From Candidatus Nomurabacteria bacterium (GTDB lineage: Bacteria > Patescibacteriota > Minisyncoccia > Phycocordibacterales > UBA5272): a stretch of DNA of 64,000 nt. The notes under the pieces are model-generated. The model saw only the letters and a program-made list of their open reading frames with translations. It made no database searches and had not been told where the DNA came from. Of this stretch, positions 1,541 through 63,010 are shown piece by piece (the first letter of the stretch is position 1; the number at the start of each line of letters is the position of its first letter). The stretch is taken from the NCBI GenBank assembly GCA_037130925.1, contig JBAXSC010000004.1, forward strand, positions 4,156 through 68,155, read 5' to 3'. Position numbers and translations under genes: made by a program.

Positions 1541-1673
1541 ATTTATAAAATATGTAAAAACAAAAGTCGCTAACCGTAGTTAGCGACCCTTGCTTATATA
1601 CCAATATTATAAAGGACAATAATTTAAAAGACAAGTAAAACTAAAAGACAAATGTGGATAACTCGTCAAATCT

Positions 1674-2378
1674 TTAAAAAGAAAATAAGAAATTAATAAA
1701 AGACAAAATATAAGGAACTAATAAAGCAAATACCTGTACTGCTACAAAGATAATTCCAATCATCATAAAAGGATTAGAAAATAAAGATTTTATATAAAAA
1801 GACCAATTTCTGATATTAGAATTATCACCTTTATATTCTGGTTTATAAATCTTTTTATTAGAAAATAAATTTCTAATACTTAAAAATAAATTTCTACTTA
1901 ATGAAGTAAGTTCTGAAAAAATAGAAAATCCATCAGCGGGAGGAAATGGTAGAAGATTAAAAAGTCCTAAGAATATATTAACAGTTGAAATAAACATTAA
2001 AATGTCTTTTAAATCAGGACTGACAAAATAATAATGTTTAATAATATAAAAAATAACCACAGATACAAACGCTATAAAGAAATTTGTAATGACTCCAGCA
2101 GAAGCAACTTGTAACTCTCCATACTTTTTATCTTTTAAATTATTAGGATTATAAGGCACCGGCTTAGCCCAACCAAAAGCAAATCCAAAAACTTTATACG
2201 ATATGATAGGAACGATAATAGACCCAAGAAAATCCAGATGTTTAATGGGATTAAGAGTTAAACGTCCAGCATTAAAAGCTGTCATATCACCATTTCTATA
2301 AGCTGCATATCCGTGAGCAATTTCATGGAAAACTATAGAATAAAAGAGGATTATCGCACAAAATATAACTGTAATCAT
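1674..2378 (-). CDS. Site-2 protease family (peptidase M50) membrane metalloprotease
   Basis: HEIAHG (HExxH) lies in the first TM helix. A second motif, FNLLPFPPADG (NxxPxxxxDG-like), is present. The profile is polytopic and hydrophobic. Confidence 0.8.
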   Translation of the reverse strand: MITVIFCAIILFYSIVFHEIAHGYAAYRNGDMTAFNAGRLTLNPIKHLDFLGSIIVPIISYKVFGFAFGWAKPVPYNPNNLKDKKYGELQVASAGVITNFFIAFVSVVIFYIIKHYYFVSPDLKDILMFISTVNIFLGLFNLLPFPPADGFSIFSELTSLSRNLFLSIRNLFSNKKIYKPEYKGDNSNIRNWSFYIKSLFSNPFMMIGIIFVAVQVFALLVPYILSFINFLFSF

Positions 2379-4280: not shown

Positions 4281-5846
4281 TTATTTTTCTATCTTCTCAT
4301 TATGAGATTTTATTTTTTGCCTATTCGTTTCAAAATTAATTAATAAAAATAAAACTACATAAATCACAAAAAGTGAAAATGTTGAAATAGAAAATTCTAT
4401 TTGTGAAAATGGTAAGTGAGAAATAAATCTCGCAACTGAAAAAATAAATTCACAAAAAATATAAGAAACATATCCAAAGAAAACAGAAATGAAATTTGCA
4501 AAAAACGAAAACAAAATTATCAAAACAGAAAACAGCATCACAGTCGGAACAAATGGCACAGCTAAAATATTTGCAAAAATTCCAAAGATAGAAATTTTTC
4601 CAAAAGTAAAAATTGTATAAGGCATGACCATGAGTTGCACAGCAAGAGTGACTTTTAAAATTTCTGAAATACTAAAAAATATTTTTTTAATAAATTTATT
4701 TTCTATTTTATCTAAATTCAAAATTTTATAATTATTAAAAATAGGTACGAGATACAAAATTCCAAGTGTCGCTAAAAATGATAAATGAAATGAAACATCA
4801 GACAAAGCTATTTCTGGATTTAAAATCATCATCACAAAAGCAGAGATAAAGAGAGCTTGTCTTGCGACATATTGTCTGCCATATAGCGAAGCCAATAATA
4901 AAGTTGATCCCATTATTCCAGCCCTAACAATTGATGCTCCAGCTCCGACAAATAAGATAAAAAATATTATAGAAAAAATTGAAAGCGTTACACGCCAAAA
5001 AAGTCTCAGATTTAATAATGAAAAAATATAAATTAATATAAAAATTAAAATAGTAATATTAAATCCAGATAAGACAATTATATGTGAAATGCCTGCTATA
5101 CGAAAATCATTTATATCTTCTTTACTAAGGAGAGATGAATCCCCCAGTAATGTACCAGCCGATAATGCTGCTGTATCTATATTAGTATCTTTCTCTAAAA
5201 TTTTCACAAATTGAGTCTTAATATTTTCTAATTTATATAAAATATTTCCTGAACTGTTTTGAGAAACGATTTGAATTTTTGGAAAGGACGTTTCACCATT
5301 TATACCCGACAATTTATTTTTAATTTGTGAGTCAAAAGATTTATTATTTTGTTCTAAATTAGGAAGAATAATGTTCTCTGTTTTTATTTTTCCAGTCACT
5401 AAAATTTTATCTCCTGCTTTATATAGAGGAAAAAGACTTGTAGTGATTTTAATTTTAAAAATATCTTGCTTAAAATTTTCATCTTCTATATTCAAAGTAA
5501 AATTTTGCGAATTTTGTGAAATGGAAACGTTGCTAATAATTCCTGAAAAGTCATTTTGATGTGAAATGGCGTTTTGGAATTCAGACTCACGAGAGAGAGA
5601 AGAGGATAGATTTAGTTGTCCAAACAAGATACCGAGAGACAAAATTAAAAAGAAAAAAGTAAGAATGGTTGGTATTTGTGACTTGTAGACACCGAATGAT
5701 CTTTTTGTAAATTTATGAACTAAAAAATTAGAGACAGATAAAAGTAGTGAAACAAGAAATATTTCTGTAGAGAAATTTGCTGTGAAAGCAATAATTAATC
5801 CAAAGAATAATCCGAGAGTGATAGCAACTATATATTTATAGTACAT
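4281..5846 (-). CDS. comEC: ComEC/Rec2 competence channel, membrane part
   Basis: 521 aa, polytopic. An N-terminal OB-like region (KITTSLFPLYKAGDKILVTGKI) is followed by the competence domain (ISHIIVLSGFNITIL, GAGASIVRAGIMG). Confidence 0.8.
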   Translation of the reverse strand: MYYKYIVAITLGLFFGLIIAFTANFSTEIFLVSLLLSVSNFLVHKFTKRSFGVYKSQIPTILTFFFLILSLGILFGQLNLSSSLSRESEFQNAISHQNDFSGIISNVSISQNSQNFTLNIEDENFKQDIFKIKITTSLFPLYKAGDKILVTGKIKTENIILPNLEQNNKSFDSQIKNKLSGINGETSFPKIQIVSQNSSGNILYKLENIKTQFVKILEKDTNIDTAALSAGTLLGDSSLLSKEDINDFRIAGISHIIVLSGFNITILIFILIYIFSLLNLRLFWRVTLSIFSIIFFILFVGAGASIVRAGIMGSTLLLASLYGRQYVARQALFISAFVMMILNPEIALSDVSFHLSFLATLGILYLVPIFNNYKILNLDKIENKFIKKIFFSISEILKVTLAVQLMVMPYTIFTFGKISIFGIFANILAVPFVPTVMLFSVLIILFSFFANFISVFFGYVSYIFCEFIFSVARFISHLPFSQIEFSISTFSLFVIYVVLFLLINFETNRQKIKSHNEKIEK

Positions 5847-6743: not shown

Positions 6744-8048
6744 ATGTTAGATATCAAAGCTTTAAATCTTGCTCTTGCAACAATAGAACAAGAAAAAAAA
6801 ATATCTCGTGAAAAAATTATTGATGCTGTAGAAAAATCTTTAGCTGCAGCTTATCAAAAAGAATACGGGAAAAAAGGACAACTTATCCGTTGTAATATAA
6901 ATTTTGATACAGGAGAAACAACTTTCGAACAAATCAAAATCGTCGTTGATGAAAGTACTGTGAGAATAGTAGAAGAAGATGAAGAAGAAAATACATCTTC
7001 AGAAAGTTATGAGACAGAAGAAGGAGAAATAGTTTTACCTCGTTACAATGAAGAAAAACACATTTTAATTTCTACAGCAAAACTTTTAAAGAAGAGCGCT
7101 GAACTTGGAGAAGAAATTACTTTTTCCCTAGAGAATCAAAATGACTTTGGACGTATCGCTGCTCAAACAGCAAAACAAGTTATAGTACAAAAAATCCGTG
7201 AAGCAGAAAACGAATCAATCTCAAGTGAATTCGAAAGTAAAGAAGGAGAAATAGTTTCTGGTGTTGTACAAAGAGTAGAGAGAGGAAATTTATTTATTGA
7301 CTTAGGAAGAACAACTGCGATTATTCCTTTTGAGGAACAAATTAAATCAGAAAGATTTCATCCAGGACAAAGAATTAAAGCATATCTATTTTCTCTTGAA
7401 GAAGGAGTTAGAGGACTATCGATTCGCCTATCAAGAAGTCATCCTAAATTCTTAATTGAATTATTCAAAAGTGAATCAAGTGAGATAGCAGATGGAACAG
7501 TTGAAATAGTTGCAGTAGCGCGTGAGCCAGGAACTCGTTCAAAGATCGCTGTTAAAAGTAATGATGAGAGAGTTGATCCTATCGGAGCTTGTGTTGGTCA
7601 ACGTGGAGTGAGAGTAAATGCGATCAGTAATGAGCTTGGTGGAGAAAAAATCGACATCATAGAATGGAGTGATGATATCAAGAAAAACATTTCTGCATCA
7701 TTATCTCCTGCAAAAGTTTTAAGTATTGAAATAAACGAAGAAGAGAAAAAAGCTTCTGTGAAAGTAAGCGTCGAGGAACAATCTCTAGCTATCGGACGTG
7801 GAGGACAAAATGTTCGCCTTGCTGCAAAATTAACAGGATGGAGAATTGATGTTGCAAGTGAAGGTGGAGATTTAATTGTTGAAGCTGATGAAGAAGGACT
7901 AGTGGATGCTGAAGTATTAAAAGATTCGCCTGAGGCTCATGGAGAAACTATCGAAGAAGAGATCGCAGAAGTGATAGAAGAAAACGAAAACAAATCAGAA
8001 GAAGATGTAAACCATTCAGCTGAAGAGCAAAAAATTATTGAAGAATAA
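6744..8048 (+). CDS. nusA: Transcription termination/antitermination factor NusA
   Basis: An S1-like segment (GEIVSGVVQRVERGNLFIDLG) and two KH motifs (GACVGQRGVRVNAISNELGGEKIDII; LAIGRGGQNVRLAAKLTGWRIDV). Confidence 0.9.
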   Translation: MLDIKALNLALATIEQEKKISREKIIDAVEKSLAAAYQKEYGKKGQLIRCNINFDTGETTFEQIKIVVDESTVRIVEEDEEENTSSESYETEEGEIVLPRYNEEKHILISTAKLLKKSAELGEEITFSLENQNDFGRIAAQTAKQVIVQKIREAENESISSEFESKEGEIVSGVVQRVERGNLFIDLGRTTAIIPFEEQIKSERFHPGQRIKAYLFSLEEGVRGLSIRLSRSHPKFLIELFKSESSEIADGTVEIVAVAREPGTRSKIAVKSNDERVDPIGACVGQRGVRVNAISNELGGEKIDIIEWSDDIKKNISASLSPAKVLSIEINEEEKKASVKVSVEEQSLAIGRGGQNVRLAAKLTGWRIDVASEGGDLIVEADEEGLVDAEVLKDSPEAHGETIEEEIAEVIEENENKSEEDVNHSAEEQKIIEE

Positions 8049-8059
8049 ATTAAGTAATT

Positions 8060-8596
8060 ATGATTGATATCTTAAAAAAAATAAAACCTTTAACTAAAGA
8101 GAATACGATTAATCTAATAATAGAAATAGAAAAAGGTTCAAAAAATAAATACGAATTAGACAAAGAAACAGGACTTATAAAATTAGACAGAGTTATGTAT
8201 ACAGCCCAATCATATCCTTTTGATTACGGATTTGTACCAAATACTTTATGGTATGACGGAGATCCGCTGGACGTAGTATTACTAACATCATACCCTATAC
8301 ATTCTGGAATTCTTGTAGAAGCAAGACCTCTCGGATATATAAACATGATAGACAACAATGAGTCTGATGCAAAAATTATAGCCGTTCCTAAAAATGATCC
8401 GAGATTTAATAATCTAAATGATATACAAGATATTAACCCCCACACAATAGATGAAATAAATCACTTTTTTGAAACCTATAAAATGTTAGAAAAAAAGATT
8501 GTAAATATTCCAAGTGTTCACAATAAAAAAGAAACAATGGAAATAATAAATGAATCTATAAAACTATTTAAAAGTAAAGGTAAAAAGAAAAAATAA
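8060..8596 (+). CDS. ppa: Inorganic pyrophosphatase, family I
   Basis: YPFDYGFVPNT, DGDPLDVVLL and DAKIIAVP motifs. Confidence 0.9.
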   Translation: MIDILKKIKPLTKENTINLIIEIEKGSKNKYELDKETGLIKLDRVMYTAQSYPFDYGFVPNTLWYDGDPLDVVLLTSYPIHSGILVEARPLGYINMIDNNESDAKIIAVPKNDPRFNNLNDIQDINPHTIDEINHFFETYKMLEKKIVNIPSVHNKKETMEIINESIKLFKSKGKKKK

Positions 8597-8613: not shown

Positions 8614-9768
8614 ATGAAAACAAAAATTGAAAATCTAGACAATGGAGAAAAAAAGATAACAGTAACTCTAGAAAATTCTGAGTTCGAAAAATATCACGAC
8701 AAAGGTTTTAGGAAAGTACAAGAGTTTGCAGAAATAGACGGATTCAGAAAAGGTAATGCTCCTGAAAATCTAGTAGTAGAAAAATATGGAGAGATGGTCG
8801 TCTTAGAAGAAATGGCTCACCTAGTAATAAATGACACTTACTATCCAGCTCTCATAAAAGAGAATGAAGATAAAAAAGAAGAAGACAAAATCTTACCTAT
8901 CTCAAATCCAAAAATATCTATTACTAAAATTGGAAAAGGTTCAGATTTTGAATACGAAGCAACATTTGCAGTATTACCGAAAGTAGAAACAGCTGACTAT
9001 AAAAAAATCTCTAAAGAAGAATCTAAAAAAGTTCTAGAAACAGAATTAGAGGAATTGAAAAAGAAAGATGAAAATGCAAAATTAGAAGATCTTAAAATAA
9101 CAACAGACAAAGAAGTTGATGAAATCTTAGAAAATTTAAGAAAAGCTAGAAATGTAGGTTCACACATTCATGAAGATGGAACTGTTCATAATGAAGGACA
9201 TGAAGAGGGAGAAAATTTGGAAAAAGAATTAGAAGAAGAAACTTTACCAGAATTCGATGATGCATTCGCTCAAAGTTTTGGAGATAATTTCAAGACAATG
9301 GAAGACTTAAAAAATAAGATTAAAGAAAATCTTGCTTTAGAAAAAAATGCAAAGCTTTTAGATAAACAAAGAAATTATATTCTTGAAAGATTAGTAAATG
9401 AATCAAAAATAAATTTACCAGAAATCTTAGTTGAAGATGAGCTTGAAAAAATGAAAGCAACAATGAAGACAGATATCGAAAGATATGGAAGTACATGGGA
9501 TGAGTATATTACACATTTAAATAAGACAGAAGAAGATCTTAAAAAAGATTGGAGAGAGACAGCAGAAAAAAGATCAAAGTCACAATTAATCTTAAATGAT
9601 ATTGCTAAGAAAGAAAAAATAGAAGTATCAAAAGATGAAATTTATGCAGAAGCATTAAAGATTTTAAATCAAATGCCAGAAGCGAATGAAGATCATGTAA
9701 ATAGTTATGTCGCTCAAATTCTATTAAATGAAAAAGTAATGAAATTGTTAGATAGTGAAATGAATTAG
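8614..9768 (+). CDS. tig: Trigger factor lacking the central PPIase domain
   Basis: The N-terminal ribosome-binding signature EIDGFRKGNAP is present. The C-terminal arm begins at LPEFDDAFAQSFG. Only a ~30-aa His/Glu-rich linker sits where the FKBP domain would be. Confidence 0.8.
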   Translation: MKTKIENLDNGEKKITVTLENSEFEKYHDKGFRKVQEFAEIDGFRKGNAPENLVVEKYGEMVVLEEMAHLVINDTYYPALIKENEDKKEEDKILPISNPKISITKIGKGSDFEYEATFAVLPKVETADYKKISKEESKKVLETELEELKKKDENAKLEDLKITTDKEVDEILENLRKARNVGSHIHEDGTVHNEGHEEGENLEKELEEETLPEFDDAFAQSFGDNFKTMEDLKNKIKENLALEKNAKLLDKQRNYILERLVNESKINLPEILVEDELEKMKATMKTDIERYGSTWDEYITHLNKTEEDLKKDWRETAEKRSKSQLILNDIAKKEKIEVSKDEIYAEALKILNQMPEANEDHVNSYVAQILLNEKVMKLLDSEMN

Positions 9769-12470: not shown

Positions 12471-13199
12471 CTACTTTTGGTCAATAATTTTAAAACTTCC
12501 AACTACTGCCGCAGTTTCAGCTCTTAAAGTATTTTTACCAAATGAAACGATCTTTAGATCATAATCTTTAAACATTTTTCTTTCATTTTCTGTCCAACCA
12601 CCTTCTGGTCCAATAAACAAGTAAAAATCATCTTTTATATCTAAATTATTTGTTGTGAAACTTTCTTCAGAAATATCACAAATCAAGATTTTACTTAATT
12701 TACCCTCTCTTTTAAAGTCTTTAAACATATTTTCGAGCTTTATAGGCTCACAAATAGTCGGAATATTCCCCCATCCAGATTGCTCAACACTTTCTATTAT
12801 TATTTTTTGGACTCTTTCTAGATTAAAACTAGCTATATTTTTCTTTTCTACCCTTTCAGATATCAGAGGAATATAATTTAAAACCCCTATTTCTGTACAT
12901 TTTTCTAAAATCAAATCTAAATTATCTTTTTTAATTAAAGATACACATAAATTTAAATTTCTTTTTTCTAATTTTTGATCTAAAGAAGCTACACTTTCTA
13001 TTAATTTTAATTTCACAAAACTCTTACTAATAGATTCTATTCTAAAAACAAAGTCTAATAATTTTTCATCATTAAACAAAACCAGACTTTCGCCTGTTTT
13101 AAATTTTAAAACATTATTCCATTGATGGAGTAATTGTTTTTCTTTTATTTCCATCTCTTCACCAAGAGGTTGTTTTACAAAAAATCTATGCAACTTCAT
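12471..13199 (-). CDS. rsmE: 16S rRNA (uracil1498-N3)-methyltransferase RsmE
   Basis: Starts MKLHRFFV, the typical RsmE N-terminus. C-terminal motifs GPEGGWTENE and LRAETAAV. The track start at 13250 is probably too far upstream. Confidence 0.8.
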   Translation of the reverse strand: MKLHRFFVKQPLGEEMEIKEKQLLHQWNNVLKFKTGESLVLFNDEKLLDFVFRIESISKSFVKLKLIESVASLDQKLEKRNLNLCVSLIKKDNLDLILEKCTEIGVLNYIPLISERVEKKNIASFNLERVQKIIIESVEQSGWGNIPTICEPIKLENMFKDFKREGKLSKILICDISEESFTTNNLDIKDDFYLFIGPEGGWTENERKMFKDYDLKIVSFGKNTLRAETAAVVGSFKIIDQK

Positions 13200-13369
13200 A
13201 AGTATGATATGAATTGCTATAACTTTATACAATTCAAAGAGACATTGCAAATAATTAAAAAGACAATATTTATCAAGCTCTTTTTTGAATTTAAAAATAC
13301 AAAATTATAAAAGACAAAAATAAAATATTAATAAAGGACAGTTATCCACAGTTATTATTAGTTAAACAG

Positions 13370-13397
13370 TTGCAAATATTATTATGTCGTTTATAAT
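13370..13397 (+). promoter_or_regulatory. Near-consensus sigma70 promoter of an orphan RNA unit
   Basis: TTGCAA (13370-13375), a 16-nt spacer, then TATAAT (13392-13397). Confidence 0.6.
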
Positions 13398-13403
13398 ACA
13401 TAC

Positions 13404-13786
13404 AGGGTGAGCAGTGACATACAAAGCTTCACCCAGCTTATGGGTATACAAATAAAGTATTCGTCAGCTGGACTCGCCAAACAGATCTTTTAAAAAAAAT
13501 AAAATAAATAATAGCACCCAAACTTATATTTTACTTCATCTTTTCAATAATTTTAGATGAAGTAACTAATTTTTGTCCTTTTATGTGAAAAATAAATCAA
13601 AAGGACAAACTCAAATACTAGAGGATGATACCTCATTAAAAACAATCAATGTGTTTCGTTTTCGTGTCCAGCGAATTGTATTTAAAGATACAGCTCGCTG
13701 GACATGAGAAGACTCCTAAAAGCTTCCCAATCATGTCTAGCGTCAGGTAGAGCACTGCTCCCGGCTATATTTATGGGGAGTTTTTT
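13404..13786 (+). ncRNA. Unclassified structured RNA candidate (~380 nt)
   Basis: Promoter upstream and an intrinsic terminator (CTCCC-N13-GGGAG-T6, 13758-13786). No ORF of 60 aa or more. Perfect stems at 13532-13564 (9 bp), 13573-13608 (10 bp) and 13666-13703 (9 bp). A possible closing helix pairs GAGCAGTG (13409-13416) with CACTGCTC (13753-13760). Confidence 0.5.
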
Positions 13787-13825
13787 ATTTGTCTAAACAT
13801 ACAAATATATAATATATAAAATAAT

Positions 13826-13861
13826 AAAAGGCTTACACGTGTAACACGGTAAGCCTTTTTT
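13826..13861. terminator. Bidirectional terminator
   Basis: AAAAGGCTTAC...GTAAGCCTTTTT. The loop contains the palindrome TTACACGTGTAA. Confidence 0.7.
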
Positions 13862-13880
13862 AATTGTCTTAACTATACGT

Positions 13881-14426
13881 TTAATCATCATCTACTTCAA
13901 AAGTCCAATTAATCAAAAGTTTCTTAACTTGATCAGATAATTCCCGACTTAAATCTATCGGGATCCTTAATTTAACTAAATCGTTATTTAAATGCTTAGT
14001 TATTTCTTCTACATTTTCATTACTTAAAATATCATAATATATTTTAGCGTCATTATTTATTGATACAGGCAATTCTTTTTTATAAAGAAAGTATAATTCC
14101 TTATAACGTACAATGAAATTTAATCTATAAACAGTAATAAAAGAGGAAAAACAAGTAAAAACCAAAGAAAAAGATGATCCAAAAATTTTAACTAAAAGAT
14201 TTACTTCTTTAACGGGAATCACAGAACCGAGAATATAAACATTAAGACAAATTGATATTCCGATAAGAATAAAACATATAATTAGAGGTGGAGGAACATT
14301 AGCTGTCCTTAAAACATCTAATATATCCTTCTTTTCCAACATAGAAATACCATTTAAACTTTCCATCTTTTGAGAAATAGACTCAAATTCTTTTGATTTA
14401 AATCTAAAAAAATTAACTTTTTTCAT
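13881..14426 (-). CDS. Hypothetical membrane protein
   Basis: ORF with an ATG at 14426 (MKKVNFF...) and two or three TM helices. Confidence 0.45.
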   Translation of the reverse strand: MKKVNFFRFKSKEFESISQKMESLNGISMLEKKDILDVLRTANVPPPLIICFILIGISICLNVYILGSVIPVKEVNLLVKIFGSSFSLVFTCFSSFITVYRLNFIVRYKELYFLYKKELPVSINNDAKIYYDILSNENVEEITKHLNNDLVKLRIPIDLSRELSDQVKKLLINWTFEVDDD

Positions 14427-14701
14427 AACGAACAATTTTATTTTTTAATAAAAAATAAGGTGACTTTTACAGAAAAATCACACAACTGAATAAATACTAT
14501 CATTTATATAAGATATGTCAAGTTGTATTTTTTTTAAAAATAGCATTATAATATATAGGTATTCTTAAAATTAATTTTTGAAACTAAAAAAGATTAAAAA
14601 GTTAATTAAAGAATGTGCACATGATTAACAAAATAATATTAAAGATAATCCTAGGAATTTTATCTTATAAATATTTTCAATATATTAAACAAAACAAAAC
14701 T

Positions 14702-17899: not shown

Positions 17900-17902
17900 T
17901 TG

Positions 17903-17973
17903 TGCGGCGTAGGAGAATCGAACTCCTGTCTCATCCTTGGCAAGGACGTGTTCTACCACTAAACCAACACCGC
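17903..17973 (-). tRNA. tRNA-Gly (GCC)
   Basis: The hand-folded cloverleaf has an anticodon loop ttGCCaa and a T-loop GTTCGATTC. No CCA is encoded. Confidence 0.9.
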
Positions 17974-20467: not shown

Positions 20468-20540
20468 CGGAGTGTAGTGTAACGGCTAACATTCTGGTTT
20501 TGGGTACCAGCGACTCAGGGTTCGAATCCCTGCACTCCGA
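20468..20540 (+). tRNA. tRNA-Pro (TGG)
   Basis: Cloverleaf with acceptor CGGAGTG/CACTCCG, anticodon loop ttTGGgt and T-loop GTTCGAATC. No CCA is encoded. Confidence 0.9.
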
Positions 20541-20561
20541 CAAAAACCTGTTAACAAAAAT

Positions 20562-21755: not shown

Positions 21756-21826
21756 GCGGTGTTGGTTTAGTGGTAGAATACCTGCCTTCCAAGCAGGGGA
21801 CAAGAGTTCGATTCTCTTACGCCGCA
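21756..21826 (+). tRNA. tRNA-Gly (TCC)
   Basis: Cloverleaf with anticodon loop ctTCCaa. No CCA is encoded. Confidence 0.9.
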
Positions 21827-21871
21827 CAAAATAATTCTTAATTCTTCAAATATTTGGTATCATATTTAAAA

Positions 21872-21943
21872 GCCTCCATGGTGAAATGGATATCACATCG
21901 GTCTTCGGAACCGCTGTTCTGGGTTCGAATCCTGGTGGGGGCA
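21872..21943 (+). tRNA. tRNA-Arg (TCG)
   Basis: Cloverleaf with anticodon loop ctTCGga and T-loop GTTCGAATC. There are several G-U pairs. No CCA is encoded. Confidence 0.85.
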
Positions 21944-22004
21944 CAAATAAAAAATACTGGTGTATAATATTGTTATTAAAAGTTTGGATAACTAAAAATA
22001 ATTT

Positions 22005-60143: not shown

Positions 60144-60184
60144 GTGAAGCAATATCATTGTTAACCTGTTTTCAAAACATTATT

Positions 60185-61531
60185 ATGGACTATAAACAAA
60201 TCTGGGACATGGCCCTATCGAGAATAGAGTTAGAACTCTCTCGTGTAAACTTCAATACTTGGTTTAGAAATACTCAAATCATCAACTATAAAGACGGAAT
60301 AGTGGTTATTGGTGTCCCAAACGAATTTGTTAAAGAATGGCTTTTTCAAAAACACCATAAATTCGTCTTAAGAATATTAAGAGAAATACATGAAGAAGTA
60401 AGAGGAGTAGAATTTCACACAGTTAAATTAGAAACTTTACAAAAAAAGGCGATAGCTAACAAAAATAAAGTTATAGAACCAACAAGTTCATTACCTTTAC
60501 AAGATTTATATATTAATAAAGATGATGGATTGAATCAAAAATACACCTTTAACAACTTTGTGGTGGGTACATTCAATGAATTGGCTTACGCAGCCTCTCA
60601 GGCGATTATAAAGAGTCCTGGAATAGTTTATAATCCTCTCTTTATCTATGGAAATACAGGATTAGGAAAAACACATCTTATTCAAGCGGTAGGAAATACT
60701 ATTAAAAACACATATCCTGAAAAAAAGATCTTTTATACTTCTTTAGAAAAGTATTATTTGGAGTTTGTTTCTGCTACACACAATCAAAAACTCAATAATT
60801 TCAAGGAAAAATACAAGAAATATGATGTTTTTATAATGGACGATATACAATTTATCAACGGAAAAGAGAAAACTCAAGACGAATTATTCCACCTATTCAA
60901 CGATTTACATAATAATAACAAGCAAATTGTCTTTTCTTCTGATAAACACCCTAATTTTATAGTTGGTTTGGAAGATAGACTTAGATCTAGATTTAATCAA
61001 GGTATGATTGTTGATGTAGCCACTCCAGATTATGAATCTAGAATAAATATCTTGAAATCTAAGATTAAAAACCACGAAAAAATAGAGCCGGGGGTTATAG
61101 AATATGTAGCTGAGAGTGTTAATGGTAACATTCGTGAATTAGAAGGAATAATCAACTTTATTCAGGCTCAAATAGAGCTTTTTGACCAAAAAGTCACCCT
61201 GAATAGTATTAAAAACCTTATAAAAAACAATACCAGATCAAAAAAATCAGTATCTATATCAGAAGTTGTTAAAACTGTGGCTGAATATTACAATATTCAA
61301 CAGACTTTTATTTATAATAAGACACGAAGAAAAGATATTGTAAAGCCAAGACAGGTAATAATGTATATTTTAAGGGAGTATTTTGATGTTTCTTATCCAA
61401 CAATAGGTGAGAAATTAGGAGGAAAAGACCATACCACAGTTATCCACTCTTACGAAAAGATCAAAAACGAAAGAAAAGACGATCCACATTTAAATAAAGA
61501 AATAGAAGATATTTATAACACTCTTAAATAG
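60185..61531 (+). CDS. dnaA: Chromosomal replication initiator DnaA
   Basis: Walker A GNTGLGKTHL, MDDIQF, sensor motifs and a C-terminal DNA-binding domain (VKPRQVIMYILRE...GGKDHTTVIHS). ATG at 60185; the track start at 60158 is a TTG. Confidence 0.95.
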   Translation: MDYKQIWDMALSRIELELSRVNFNTWFRNTQIINYKDGIVVIGVPNEFVKEWLFQKHHKFVLRILREIHEEVRGVEFHTVKLETLQKKAIANKNKVIEPTSSLPLQDLYINKDDGLNQKYTFNNFVVGTFNELAYAASQAIIKSPGIVYNPLFIYGNTGLGKTHLIQAVGNTIKNTYPEKKIFYTSLEKYYLEFVSATHNQKLNNFKEKYKKYDVFIMDDIQFINGKEKTQDELFHLFNDLHNNNKQIVFSSDKHPNFIVGLEDRLRSRFNQGMIVDVATPDYESRINILKSKIKNHEKIEPGVIEYVAESVNGNIRELEGIINFIQAQIELFDQKVTLNSIKNLIKNNTRSKKSVSISEVVKTVAEYYNIQQTFIYNKTRRKDIVKPRQVIMYILREYFDVSYPTIGEKLGGKDHTTVIHSYEKIKNERKDDPHLNKEIEDIYNTLK

Positions 61532-61894
61532 GGATATTATTCTATTATGTTTATAAACCAGTTAATAACCTGTTCATAAACTATAGAATAACCACACATC
61601 TCATGTTAATAACTTTGATTGATAATCTATATTATTCATATTTTAAAAAATAAGTAAATAGATAAAAATTTTTAATCCTGTATTCAAAACTAGTTATAAA
61701 CTTTAATATTATTTTTTATCTAAAATAAGCTTTATTTATCAAGATAAAAAACTTATTAACTTTATCAACATAGTTATATTAATAATGTGTTCTTTAAATA
61801 AAAAAGTATTAACCAAGAAAACAGAAATACAAAACATTTAATTTTTAATATTCTTTGAATATTGTTATAATGAATCTATTATAAAGATAAACTT
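61532..61894. other. Candidate oriC (dnaA-dnaN intergenic region)
   Basis: 363 bp, extremely AT-rich and in the canonical position. It contains GTTTATAAAC (61549-61558), GTTCATAAAC (61572-61581), GTTATAAAC (61693-61701) and TTATCAACA (61762-61770). There is no perfect TTATCCACA box. Confidence 0.4.
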
Positions 61895-63010
61895 ATGAAA
61901 TTCGAGATTAATTCAATTAAATTCTTTAAAGCTATAAACCAAGTAGGAAAAGCTAGAAATAAAAATACCTTAAATCAATATTTAACTAATATTTATTTAA
62001 AAGTAGAAGAAAATAGTCTTATAATGAGAGCTACTAATCTAGAAATTACTTGTGAAAAATCTACTAATATTAAAGGTATAGTAAACGGAGAATGTCTTAT
62101 CAATGGCGATATTTTAACAAAAATTTCAGGACATTTTTCTAGTGTAGATACTAATATTACTTGTGAGTTAGTTGATGGAACATTTAATATTTCTTATTTA
62201 AAAAATAAACTACAGTTAAAAACTATAGATTTGGAAGATTTTCCAAATATTCCTAAAGCAGGACAGTTTTTAACAAGTTTAAATTTAAAGATTTATATTA
62301 ATTTAATTAAGTCTGTATCTTTTTGCGCTGCTTCTACAGAAATAAAGCCAGAAATATCATCTGTTTATTTATACTCTAAAAATAGAGAGCTTTATTCTGT
62401 GGCTACAGACTCTTTTAGATTAGCTGAAAAGAAAGTAGTTTTCAATTCTGATTCAGAAGATATTAATATTTTAATTTCTCAAAAGAATATTAATGAAAAA
62501 ATATCAATTTTAGAAGGAATTTTAGAAGATGGAGATGAGAATATTGATCTTTATAATAATGAGAATATATTAACATTGCAAAATGATAATATTTCTTTAG
62601 CTATTAGATCTATTAATGGTAATTTTCCTGATTATAAACAACTTTTTCCAAAAGAATTTGATACAAAAATTAAAGTAAACAAAACAGAGTTAAAAAATAT
62701 TCTTAATTTATCAACTATCTTTGTTAATAATTATTCTTATATTGATTTTGAGGTTGATAATGAAAACAAAATAATTAGATCTAAATCTAAAAATGATAAA
62801 ATAGGATCTCTGGAAAAAGAAATTAATATTATAGATGGTGATGGTCAAAATATTAATGCTAGTTATAATAGTAATTACTTTTTAGACGGGCTTTCTCATA
62901 TTAATAATGGTGAAATTGAGCTATTTTTTACTACAAGTAATAAGCCTGTATTTATAAAAGATGCTAATGATGAGAGTTTTACATATCTTTTAATGCCTTT
63001 AAATAAATAA
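61895..63010 (+). CDS. dnaN: DNA polymerase III beta sliding clamp
   Basis: 371 aa with a three-domain clamp pattern, DSFRLAEK and a C-terminal LLMPLN. Located directly after dnaA. Confidence 0.9.
   Translation: MKFEINSIKFFKAINQVGKARNKNTLNQYLTNIYLKVEENSLIMRATNLEITCEKSTNIKGIVNGECLINGDILTKISGHFSSVDTNITCELVDGTFNISYLKNKLQLKTIDLEDFPNIPKAGQFLTSLNLKIYINLIKSVSFCAASTEIKPEISSVYLYSKNRELYSVATDSFRLAEKKVVFNSDSEDINILISQKNINEKISILEGILEDGDENIDLYNNENILTLQNDNISLAIRSINGNFPDYKQLFPKEFDTKIKVNKTELKNILNLSTIFVNNYSYIDFEVDNENKIIRSKSKNDKIGSLEKEINIIDGDGQNINASYNSNYFLDGLSHINNGEIELFFTTSNKPVFIKDANDESFTYLLMPLNK

Follow-up and report, generated by a model that had tools for sequence, protein, structure and literature searches.

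A conserved, structured non-coding RNA, very probably of a new family, in one lineage of Paceibacteria

A 64,000-nucleotide (nt) stretch of a Candidatus Nomurabacteria bacterium genome (GCA_037130925.1, contig JBAXSC010000004.1, positions 4,156 to 68,155 of the forward strand; hereafter the window) was analyzed for an intergenic element between rsmE and a small open reading frame (ORF). A preliminary description, made from the sequence alone, had taken this element for an orphan promoter-to-terminator unit encoding a ~380-nt structured RNA without an ORF. That core reading was supported by conservation, by covariation, by the lack of a conserved ORF and by the lack of any Rfam or ARAGORN match. 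The element (13404-13789, + strand, ~385 nt), of which promoter, RNA body and T-run recur in relatives, is very probably a genuine, conserved gene for a structured non-coding RNA of a new family. The best explanation, to which a probability of roughly 0.55 is assigned, is a single-copy gene for a stable, structured, trans-acting RNA of a new family, most likely protein-binding. The family is confined to a single lineage of Paceibacteria (Candidate Phyla Radiation, CPR/Patescibacteria) and appears to be without detectable relation to any catalogued family. The gene is an independent unit, with a conserved promoter, tandem terminators and, in several genomes, a convergent ORF between the RNA and hup.

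Results

Conservation and coding potential

Homologs were searched for by anchoring on RsmE against one genome per species, which led to metagenome-assembled genomes (MAGs) of Paceibacteria/Parcubacteria, some carrying the depositor label Saccharibacteria. In the six closest loci RsmE was 44-60% identical, and all six kept the element upstream of rsmE on the opposite strand, with ~70% nucleotide identity over ~450 nt (nhmmer E-values 1e-23 to 1e-53; 1e-23 to 1e-119 across relatives). Further copies were collected with a pattern derived from the most conserved hairpin (four more in JGI metagenomes) and from contigs encoding close HU homologs. The resulting set, designated type 1, comprises 14 clearly distinct sequences from Paceibacteria MAGs and metagenomes with 59-99% mutual identity and a length of 338-473 nt, plus one 829-nt version (individual loci are cited by L number). 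All type 1 RNAs lie upstream of hup-clpP-rny on the same strand, flanked on the other side by rsmE (divergent) or by nusA-tig, and the RNA is single-copy in the window. Conservation among relatives, which the preliminary description had named as a check, is present in these 14 type 1 homologs.

No ORF of 60 aa or more had been reported between promoter and terminator, and the longest + strand ORF was indeed at most 44 aa. Among the 14 homologs no ORF was conserved; the longest ones differed in position, frame and sequence, and a peptide gene was rejected on these grounds.

Fold of the 5' rod and the central region

The + strand, to which all RNA coordinates below refer, folded at -111.4 kcal/mol (z = -8.0 against dinucleotide shuffles; minus strand, z = -6.4). 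Nine helices were backed by compensatory changes, and the comparative fold, when enforced on the window sequence, lay only 5.5 kcal/mol above the minimum free energy. Covariation, also proposed as a check, was present in the 5' rod, H3, P-T and P-J. The three stems reported earlier (13532-13564, 13573-13608, 13666-13703) exist; two further pairings proposed with them had to be given up, as set out below.

The 5' rod (13406-13478) is composed of P1 (13406-11/13473-78), P1b (13412-15/13467-70), P2 (13419-22/13457-60) and P3 (13432-35/13441-44). P3 is capped by a pentaloop, GCUUA in the window and GNNUA across all relatives, and the rod contains a conserved internal loop, RACACYC on one side and A-rich opposite. 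For the P1-P1b-P2-P3 fold, 94.7% of cells were paired and 7 pairs changed on both sides; the observed value was reached by 0 of 500 shuffles, and slid controls were 29-45% paired. P1 reads GGUGAG/CUCACC in most sequences and GGUGGU/ACCACC in L002, and P3 closes with G-C in ten of the sequences but with A-U in three others. An alternative rod fold (CCNGCUU with AAGCUGG) could be paired equally well (94.1%), but it showed only 3 covarying pairs, 2 of them in P1, and has less support. The preliminary description had also suggested a helix closing the whole RNA, GAGCAGTG with CACTGCTC (13409-16/13753-60). Changes on its 5' side in L002, L086, L089, L103, L109 and L120 were uncompensated on the 3' side and were compensated by nearby partners, in P1 and P1b.

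Downstream of the rod, block A (AAAUAAUAGCACCCAAACUUAUAU, 13506-13529) is nearly invariant and predicted to be unpaired, and no covarying partner was found for it. Two hairpins with variable loops follow (13532-13608), H1 (13532-64) and H2 (13573-608). The word UUGUCCUUUU...AAAAGGACAA makes up H2, which is the only TTGTCYTTT/AAARGACAA inverted pair in the 64-kb window; GUCBUU/AAVGAC words occur 1-5 times per type 1 RNA, against about 0.5 expected. The promoter DNA of this RNA, like that of a second unit at 1604-1705, also carries repeats of the TTGTCYTTT/AAARGACAA word found in the variable-hairpin stems.

Block B (CUCAAAUACUAGAGGAUGAUACCUCAUUAAAAACAAUCAAU, 13610-13650) contains hairpin B (13621-24/13631-34, loop AYGANA), whose stem covaries as GAGG/CCUC, AAGG/CCUU, AUGG/CCAU and AGAG/CUCU. 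A pseudoknot from the hairpin-B loop to a downstream segment (GAY/RUC) was supported only in the L002/L004 lineage, was contradicted by L005, L109 and L120, and was discarded. H3 (13659-13710, ~21 bp) has 10 covarying pairs; its lower stem (UUUCGUGUCCAGCGA/UCGCUGGACAUGAGA) is conserved in sequence and otherwise invariant, with compensatory changes in L109 and L120. Three copies of GTCCAGC/GCTGGAC had been thought to allow alternative pairings; the third copy varies without compensation in H3 and covaries with its P-J partner instead.

The 829-nt version of the RNA (L109 2833-3661; ENA ERZ26695388 ctg142711) has its central region expanded into an irregular array, with six GAGAUUACUCC/GAGATTACTCC units, a different hairpin after each, and four hairpin-B modules, GGATGAYACCAT-ATAAAAAACA. 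The GAGC hairpin module of the 3' domain is duplicated in L006 and L120. Elsewhere in L109, two stretches of the minus strand (7131-7185 and 8129-8184) matched the type III hammerhead ribozyme below threshold, scoring 41.0 and 32.9 bits where the gathering score is 48.5.

The 3' domain and termination

The 3' domain (13718-13786) is nested. Its outer helix, P-T (13718-29/13774-85, 11-12 bp), pairs an A-tract plus CUUCCCA with UGGGGAG plus the U-tract (13781-86, T6 in the DNA); within it lie P-J (13738-41/13764-67), GG/CC (13746-47/13761-62) and GAGC/GCUC (13750-53/13757-60). With RNAduplex, AAAA-N-CUUCCCA, located 37-74 nt upstream, was the best partner of the G-rich strand in 13/14 sequences. 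For P-T, with strands anchored by hand, 146/154 cells were paired, and 0/10000 partner shuffles reached that number. P-J occurs as nine strand-pair types (UAGC/GCUA, CAGC/GCUG, UCAG/CUGA, CAAC/GUUG, CAAU/AUUG, UGGC/GCUG, UCUU/AAGA, UCAU/AUGA and UUGU/ACAA); its four core positions pair in 14/14 sequences (observed value reached in 0/10000 shuffles), and it encloses an invariant G-NNN-GG-UN-GAGC-loop-GCUC-CC-G hairpin.

An intrinsic terminator CTCCC-N13-GGGAG-T6 had been read from this region. The T-run (13781-13786) stands and is invariant in homologs. The stem proposed for it, with CTCCC (13758-62), does not, as the partner of the G-rich strand that precedes the T-run is AAAAGCTTCCCA (13718-29). 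P-T abuts U6, which gives a stable helix ending at the U-tract and hence a predicted intrinsic terminator, atypical in that P-T encloses a 'loop' of ~40 nt. A consensus terminator scan listed no + strand terminator, P-T being missed by the simple scan. A canonical second hairpin with T-run (13828-13868, both strands) follows, and each of the seven loci in alignment A1 has an equivalent hairpin 30-40 nt downstream of the first T-run. This second terminator would back up the RNA's own stop and end the convergent ORF; the RNA would end near 13868 if the first stop were read through.

In the 3' domain, GGUAGAGCACUG (13746-13757) also occurs unchanged in E. coli 23S ribosomal RNA (rRNA) (L133 ~3200). 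The match was judged coincidental, since relatives do not share the loop part ACU, as were the 16S/23S word similarities in general (GGGUGAG, GUGCCAGC, GGAUCACCUCC and again GGUAGAGCACUG), which are not collinear and not conserved in relatives.

Promoter class and the DnaA-box word

The near-consensus promoter TTGCAA-16-TATAAT reported at 13370-13397 (+) is present and is kept in every homologous locus. It consists of the -35 element TTGCAA, a 16-nt spacer and an extended -10 element TGTCGTTTATAAT, with 10/12 consensus matches. The promoter scan of the window alone was uninformative (10 promoter-like sites, 9.2 expected in shuffles); in alignment A1, TTGCAA and ATGTC-T-TATA are invariant across the seven loci.

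A perfect DnaA box, TTATCCACA, had been noted at 13342-13350 (+) and was found there, 18-20 nt upstream of the -35 element, as one of only 3 perfect copies in the 64-kb window; the three do not cluster. The word occurs at the same spacing from the -35 element in every type 1 locus and in every locus of the type 2 set described below. It reads as a conserved promoter-associated site and not as an origin. In fixed phase near -60 it would suit a class I-type activator site, with DnaA as its putative binder.

TTATCCACA 18-20 nt upstream of the -35 element, the extended -10 element TGTCNTTTATAAT and AAARGACA words together define a small promoter class. TGTCNTTTATAAT has exact matches at only three window sites. 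AAARGACA words number 29 in the window against 12.3 expected, with clusters at 13258-13340 and 1611-1705; the former, in the divergent promoter region, includes copies at 13258-65, 13309-16 and 13333-40 (+). The same class probably drives the divergent rsmE promoter, whose probable -10 element is TGTCTTTTATAAT (13304-16, minus strand; promoter-like site listed at 13331-13304).

The class also recurs at the second unit (window 1555-1705, minus strand, including 1604-1661), which carries TTATCCACA, TTGTCTTTT as -35 element, TGTCCTTTATAAT and four AAARGACA words. Behind the start of the unit come a small, conserved hairpin with T-run (GGGTCGCTAAC-TAC-GGTTAGCGAC-TTTTG) and then a large gene that extends beyond the window start and encodes, in relatives, a BNR/Sortilin-like protein of ~700-760 aa. 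Counterparts of the unit are located at L006 ~4869-4970, L120 ~760-875 and L104 ~2200-2321. The unit could represent a tiny RNA or else a leader or attenuator.

The preliminary description had held that a replication origin in this region would refute the RNA reading. An origin at the gap was not supported: there is a single DnaA box without a cluster, and neither GC skew nor gene orientation shows an origin-like switch at 13.3 kb. The dnaA gene (60158-61531, 457 aa, TTG start) and the dnaA-dnaN span (60158-63010) lie 47 kb from the gap. Between 5.8 and 63 kb the + strand carries nearly all genes and GC skew stays mostly positive, with no switch at dnaA either, so the genome's origin may not adjoin dnaA.

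Type 2 RNAs

Genomes with HU at 72-80% identity carry in the syntenic gap (minus-strand rsmE, gap, clpP-hup) a unit of 240-375 nt, designated type 2, for which no sequence similarity to type 1 was detectable. It has the same promoter as type 1 (TTATCCACAG, 18-20 nt, TTGCAT, AAAGGACA, TATAAT). The 5' rod has a closing stem and a short stem capped by a GNNUA pentaloop (GGUUA, GAGUA or GGCUA; GCUUA in type 1) and matches the P1-P3 rod fold only, not the alternative fold. A UGYUCUUUR word stands directly 3' of the rod, and a long terminal hairpin is placed between A- and U-tracts.

The boxA-like word

In the window a single-stranded word, AGAUCUUUU (13483-13491, +), lies just 3' of the rod. It was compared with the rrn boxA sequence UGCUCUUUA (PMC2724277). 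The word is kept in position, at nt ~76-95 of the RNA. Type 2 RNAs scored 7-9/9 in four of the five scored and 6/9 in L126; type 1 RNAs scored 6-8/9 in most cases (commonly AGUUCAUUA, 6/9) and 5/9 in L120. The highest-scoring words were UGCUCUUUA itself in L121 (9/9), UGCUCUUUG in L110 (8/9) and UGUUCUUUA in L086 and L130 (8/9). In L092, L093 and L103 the boxA scan scored highest on a word within the rod (nt 67-69, 5/9).

The E. coli rrnB leader has the same layout, a hairpin followed by TGCTCTTTAACAA. BoxA-mediated Nus antitermination also shields other long untranslated transcripts, namely long non-coding CRISPR transcripts, from Rho (PMC7665894). From this comparison we infer that the 5' ~90 nt would be a Nus-loading signal, the case for it being strong in most type 2 RNAs but weak in the window. 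That boxA-type antitermination applies here is a tentative proposal, held at somewhat less than even odds.

Known RNA families

Rfam 15 (4227 models) was searched with the window and 34 loci at gathering score, and with the gap, one type 2 gap and 13 whole loci at permissive E-values. At gathering score the window yielded four transfer RNAs (tRNAs) only. At E<=10 nothing meaningful appeared in the gap or the type 2 gap and nothing recurrent in the 13 homologous loci. The families proposed for this check (transfer-messenger RNA (tmRNA), signal recognition particle (SRP) RNA, 6S RNA and the OLE/ROOL/GOLLD/raiA classes) gave no match; OLE, ROOL, GOLLD, raiA and HEARO were rejected after cmscan against all 4227 models. 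Literature searches retrieved no description of such an RNA in Patescibacteria/CPR and no radiation-specific large structured RNA.

The preliminary description had looked for tmRNA and SRP features and found none, and this was confirmed by the Rfam result and by ARAGORN, which reported no tmRNA. A tmRNA was rejected because ARAGORN and Rfam (E<=10) were negative, the 5' end pairs locally (P1), the two ends close separate domains and a T-loop is missing. Reading CUCACCAAA as an acceptor/CCA end fails, since P1 takes up these C residues, which vary to U in wobble pairs. The candidate tag frame after AAUAAUA-GCA-CCC-AAA-CUU-AUA ends after 5 to >25 codons with unrelated tails and no common C-terminus. 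RNase P RNA had no match at E<=10 in the window or in at least 9 homologous loci and no P4-type core, and the GGAAAGUCC-type RNase P word was not present in the sequence. For SRP RNA there was no Rfam match and no domain IV, only the 7-nt GUCAGGU being common, with GACAGGU in relatives. 6S RNA had no Rfam match either, and its closing stem is excluded by 5' and 3' ends that close separate domains (P1 and P-T).

Genomic neighbourhood

The 630-bp gap between two minus-strand genes described earlier was borne out: rsmE (minus strand; Pfam Methyltrans_RNA, 2.9e-38) ends at 13199 when read from its MKLHRFF start, and a small minus-strand ORF without Pfam match lies on the far side (13881-14435). 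Gene order around the gap is nusA (6744-8048), ppa, tig (8614-9768), a TrmB-like regulator, rsmE (minus), the gap and HU-ClpP-RNase Y (plus), the identity of RNase Y in the window being taken from Pfam matches of the homologous gene in relatives. The window is AT-rich (25-30% GC), and G+C reaches 0.39-0.43 at both ends of the RNA unit against ~0.2 in the flanks.

An opposite-strand ORF of 170-200 aa without Pfam match occupies the RNA/hup interval in some genomes and the hup/clpP interval in others (window 13881-14435, minus; L004 2683-3267; L005 2773-3294; L006 2729-3337; L092 9084-9653; L093 4378-4917; L103 4398-4907). The copies are barely or not similar, BLASTP pairing only L004 with L006 and L093 with L103, and this position appears to be a fast-evolving or repeatedly replaced gene slot.

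The four window tRNA genes found at Rfam gathering score (17902-17973, 20468-20541, 21756-21827 and 21872-21944) lack an encoded 3' CCA, the sequence running on as CAAA or AAAA. A CCA-adding enzyme (PolyA_pol/tRNA_NucTran2) is encoded in relatives a few kb from the RNA locus.

Discussion

A proposed protein-binding RNA that acts in trans

The conserved signals suggest the following course. A strong sigma-70-type promoter, with TTATCCACA in fixed phase and AAARGACA words, would start transcription near 13404. The first ~90 nt, a rod hairpin followed by the unpaired boxA-like word in the layout of an rRNA-operon leader, may load Nus factors and protect the transcript from Rho. The transcript is predicted to fold into the 5' rod, a central region in which invariant single strands alternate with hairpins, and the nested 3' domain, its helices being backed by covariation. 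The outer helix of the 3' domain, which runs into the U-tract, would set the RNA end, with the back-up terminator 40 nt downstream. The mature RNA would then act in trans as a protein-binding scaffold or a sequestering RNA, a role that we regard as plausible, at just under an even chance.

Conservation is strongest in the unpaired blocks A and B, in the invariant helices (H3 lower stem, GAGC hairpin, UGUCYUUU/AAARGACA stems) and in the internal loops. Because of this pattern, and because modules have been multiplied in single lineages, a scaffold or sequestering role fits better than a seed-type antisense RNA. The latter fits less well because intramolecular helices take up most of the C-rich words and no target came to light.

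Several points weigh against the preferred interpretation. The ends of the RNA were placed by sequence signals, the 5' end by the promoter (+/- 3 nt) and the 3' end by the T-run. The sample consists of 14 + 5 distinct sequences that are phylogenetically related, by which the shuffle-based significance is inflated. The type 2 RNAs are probable homologs of type 1 on the strength of synteny, promoter and fold, not of sequence, and a covariance model of the 5' rod (R1) found neither the type 2 RNAs nor any other CPR locus. The window word AGAUCUUUU has 6/9 matches to the rrn boxA UGCUCUUUA, a count to be read with the qualification that this phylum's consensus may differ. A complement scan of the window gave low-complexity A/T matches only and no target, and an extremely diverged universal RNA, taken up below, has to be set against a new family.

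Alternative explanations

An unlikely alternative, though the one that survives best, is a base-pairing regulator of the RNAIII or RsaE kind, in which unpaired C-rich or A/U-rich blocks (CACCCAAAC and others) would pair with ribosome-binding sites or mRNA. The invariant unpaired blocks A and B do look like a seed region, and G+C-rich words stand out in a genome of 25-30% GC. Most of the C-rich words, however, sit in covarying intramolecular helices (P1, P3, hairpin B, P-T); the complement scan of the window picked no target, and blocks A and B against E. coli rRNA performed no better than shuffles. At ~385 nt and with nine conserved helices, the RNA also exceeds the need of a seed carrier.

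It is rather improbable that the RNA derives from an rRNA-operon leader and serves ribosome biogenesis or Nus control, as a leader acting in trans, a chaperone or a Nus-titrating decoy. The layout of promoter, hairpin, boxA-like word, long helix H3 (resembling an RNase III leader-trailer helix) and tandem terminators would suit this, as would the neighbours rsmE, which encodes a 16S methyltransferase, and nusA. Against it, blocks A and B had no above-shuffle complementarity to conserved 16S/23S (E. coli rRNA only); with RNAduplex against E. coli 16S/23S, the unpaired blocks gave z-scores of -0.8 to +1.1. The one high score, block C against E. coli 23S (z = -4.1), falls in a segment that is structured in the RNA and was read as coincidence. 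BoxA is also found on other long non-coding transcripts (PMC7665894), so that no rRNA link is implied by the word.

A related and equally improbable idea is that the RNA is a feedback decoy for replication or growth control, titrating the Nus machinery, the regulator of the promoter class, or both, in effect an 'orphan rRNA leader' turned regulator. It is suggested by the DnaA-box promoter phase, the putative Nus site of rRNA-leader type and the UGUCYUUU/AAARGACA word shared by RNA hairpins and promoter. To our knowledge no precedent for an orphan rRNA leader turned regulator has been described.

That the RNA is a cis-acting leader or attenuator of hup-clpP-rny, with GCUCCC engaged alternately in the GAGC hairpin or the terminator, is quite improbable. 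The RNA is always upstream of hup-clpP-rny on the same strand, and GCUCCC is complementary to the G-rich 3' strand (L120). A convergent ORF nevertheless lies between RNA and hup in the window, L004, L005, L006 and L092; the second terminator is found in all seven loci of alignment A1; promoter-like -10 elements precede clpP in type 2 loci; and covariation backs P-T with the upstream CUUCCCA, not the GCUCCC switch.

An extremely diverged tmRNA, RNase P RNA, SRP RNA or 6S RNA is highly improbable. The size would fit tmRNA or RNase P RNA, clpP is nearby, and short words recall these RNAs: AAUAAUA-GCA-CCC (resume-codon context), CCCGGCUUA (RNase P) and GUCAGGU (SRP). These hints are countered by the lack of any Rfam match at E<=10 in at least 10 homologs and the negative ARAGORN result, by ends that do not pair, by the lack of a T-loop, conserved CCA, P4-type core or SRP domain IV, and by an inconsistent tag frame.

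Scarcely credible is a purely DNA-level element, an origin or operator palindromes for a factor binding AAARGACA or TTATCCACA: for it speak the perfect DnaA box and the AAARGACA words in the promoter, the same word as in the H2 inverted repeat, and against it the single box, the lack of a skew or orientation switch at 13.3 kb, the distance of 47 kb to dnaA-dnaN, and the RNA signatures of G-U covariation, variable loop lengths and a strand-asymmetric conserved T-run.

Comparison with known systems

Among known systems, the rRNA-operon leader (boxB hairpin, boxA and boxC; rrnTAC) shares with this RNA the strong promoter, the hairpin and the unpaired boxA-like word after it (UGCUCUUUA, UGUUCUUUG or AGUUCAUUA), as well as an untranslated transcript and tandem terminators (PMC2724277). 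It differs in that no rRNA follows here, the unit is only ~385 nt long and the window word matches at 6/9; the likeness concerns how the RNA may be transcribed, not its role. OLE, ROOL, GOLLD, raiA and HEARO RNAs are comparable as lineage-restricted RNAs of several hundred nt with many covarying helices, no ORF and a gene of their own, whereas their Rfam models are not matched and architecture and host phylum differ. Like 6S RNA and CsrB/RsmZ, the RNA has an independent gene and is probably abundant, and its module copy number varies (L109, L006, L120); unlike 6S RNA it has no 5'/3' closing stem with a central bubble, and unlike CsrB no array of GGA hairpin loops and no Rfam match. With tmRNA it shares its length, an A/U-rich conserved single strand followed by GCA between structured elements, and the proximity of clpP, but not a tRNA-like domain, T-loop, CCA, conserved tag frame or pairing ends. 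From a riboswitch or cis leader it is set apart by the second terminator and the convergent ORF that intervene in the window and four relatives.

Significance

Non-coding DNA is very scarce in the tiny genomes of CPR/Patescibacteria. The invariant blocks of the RNA persist while neighbouring proteins drop to 44% identity, and because of such strong purifying selection in tiny genomes a ~385-nt RNA should do something important. A new RNA class would offer an entry point into the ribonucleoprotein biology of uncultivated episymbionts, and its size and high degree of structure make the family a candidate for structural studies. If the antitermination proposal is true, boxA-type antitermination would be known from a second kind of non-rRNA transcript besides CRISPR arrays. 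The gene would also provide a testable link between the DnaA-box promoter class and RNA-based regulation.

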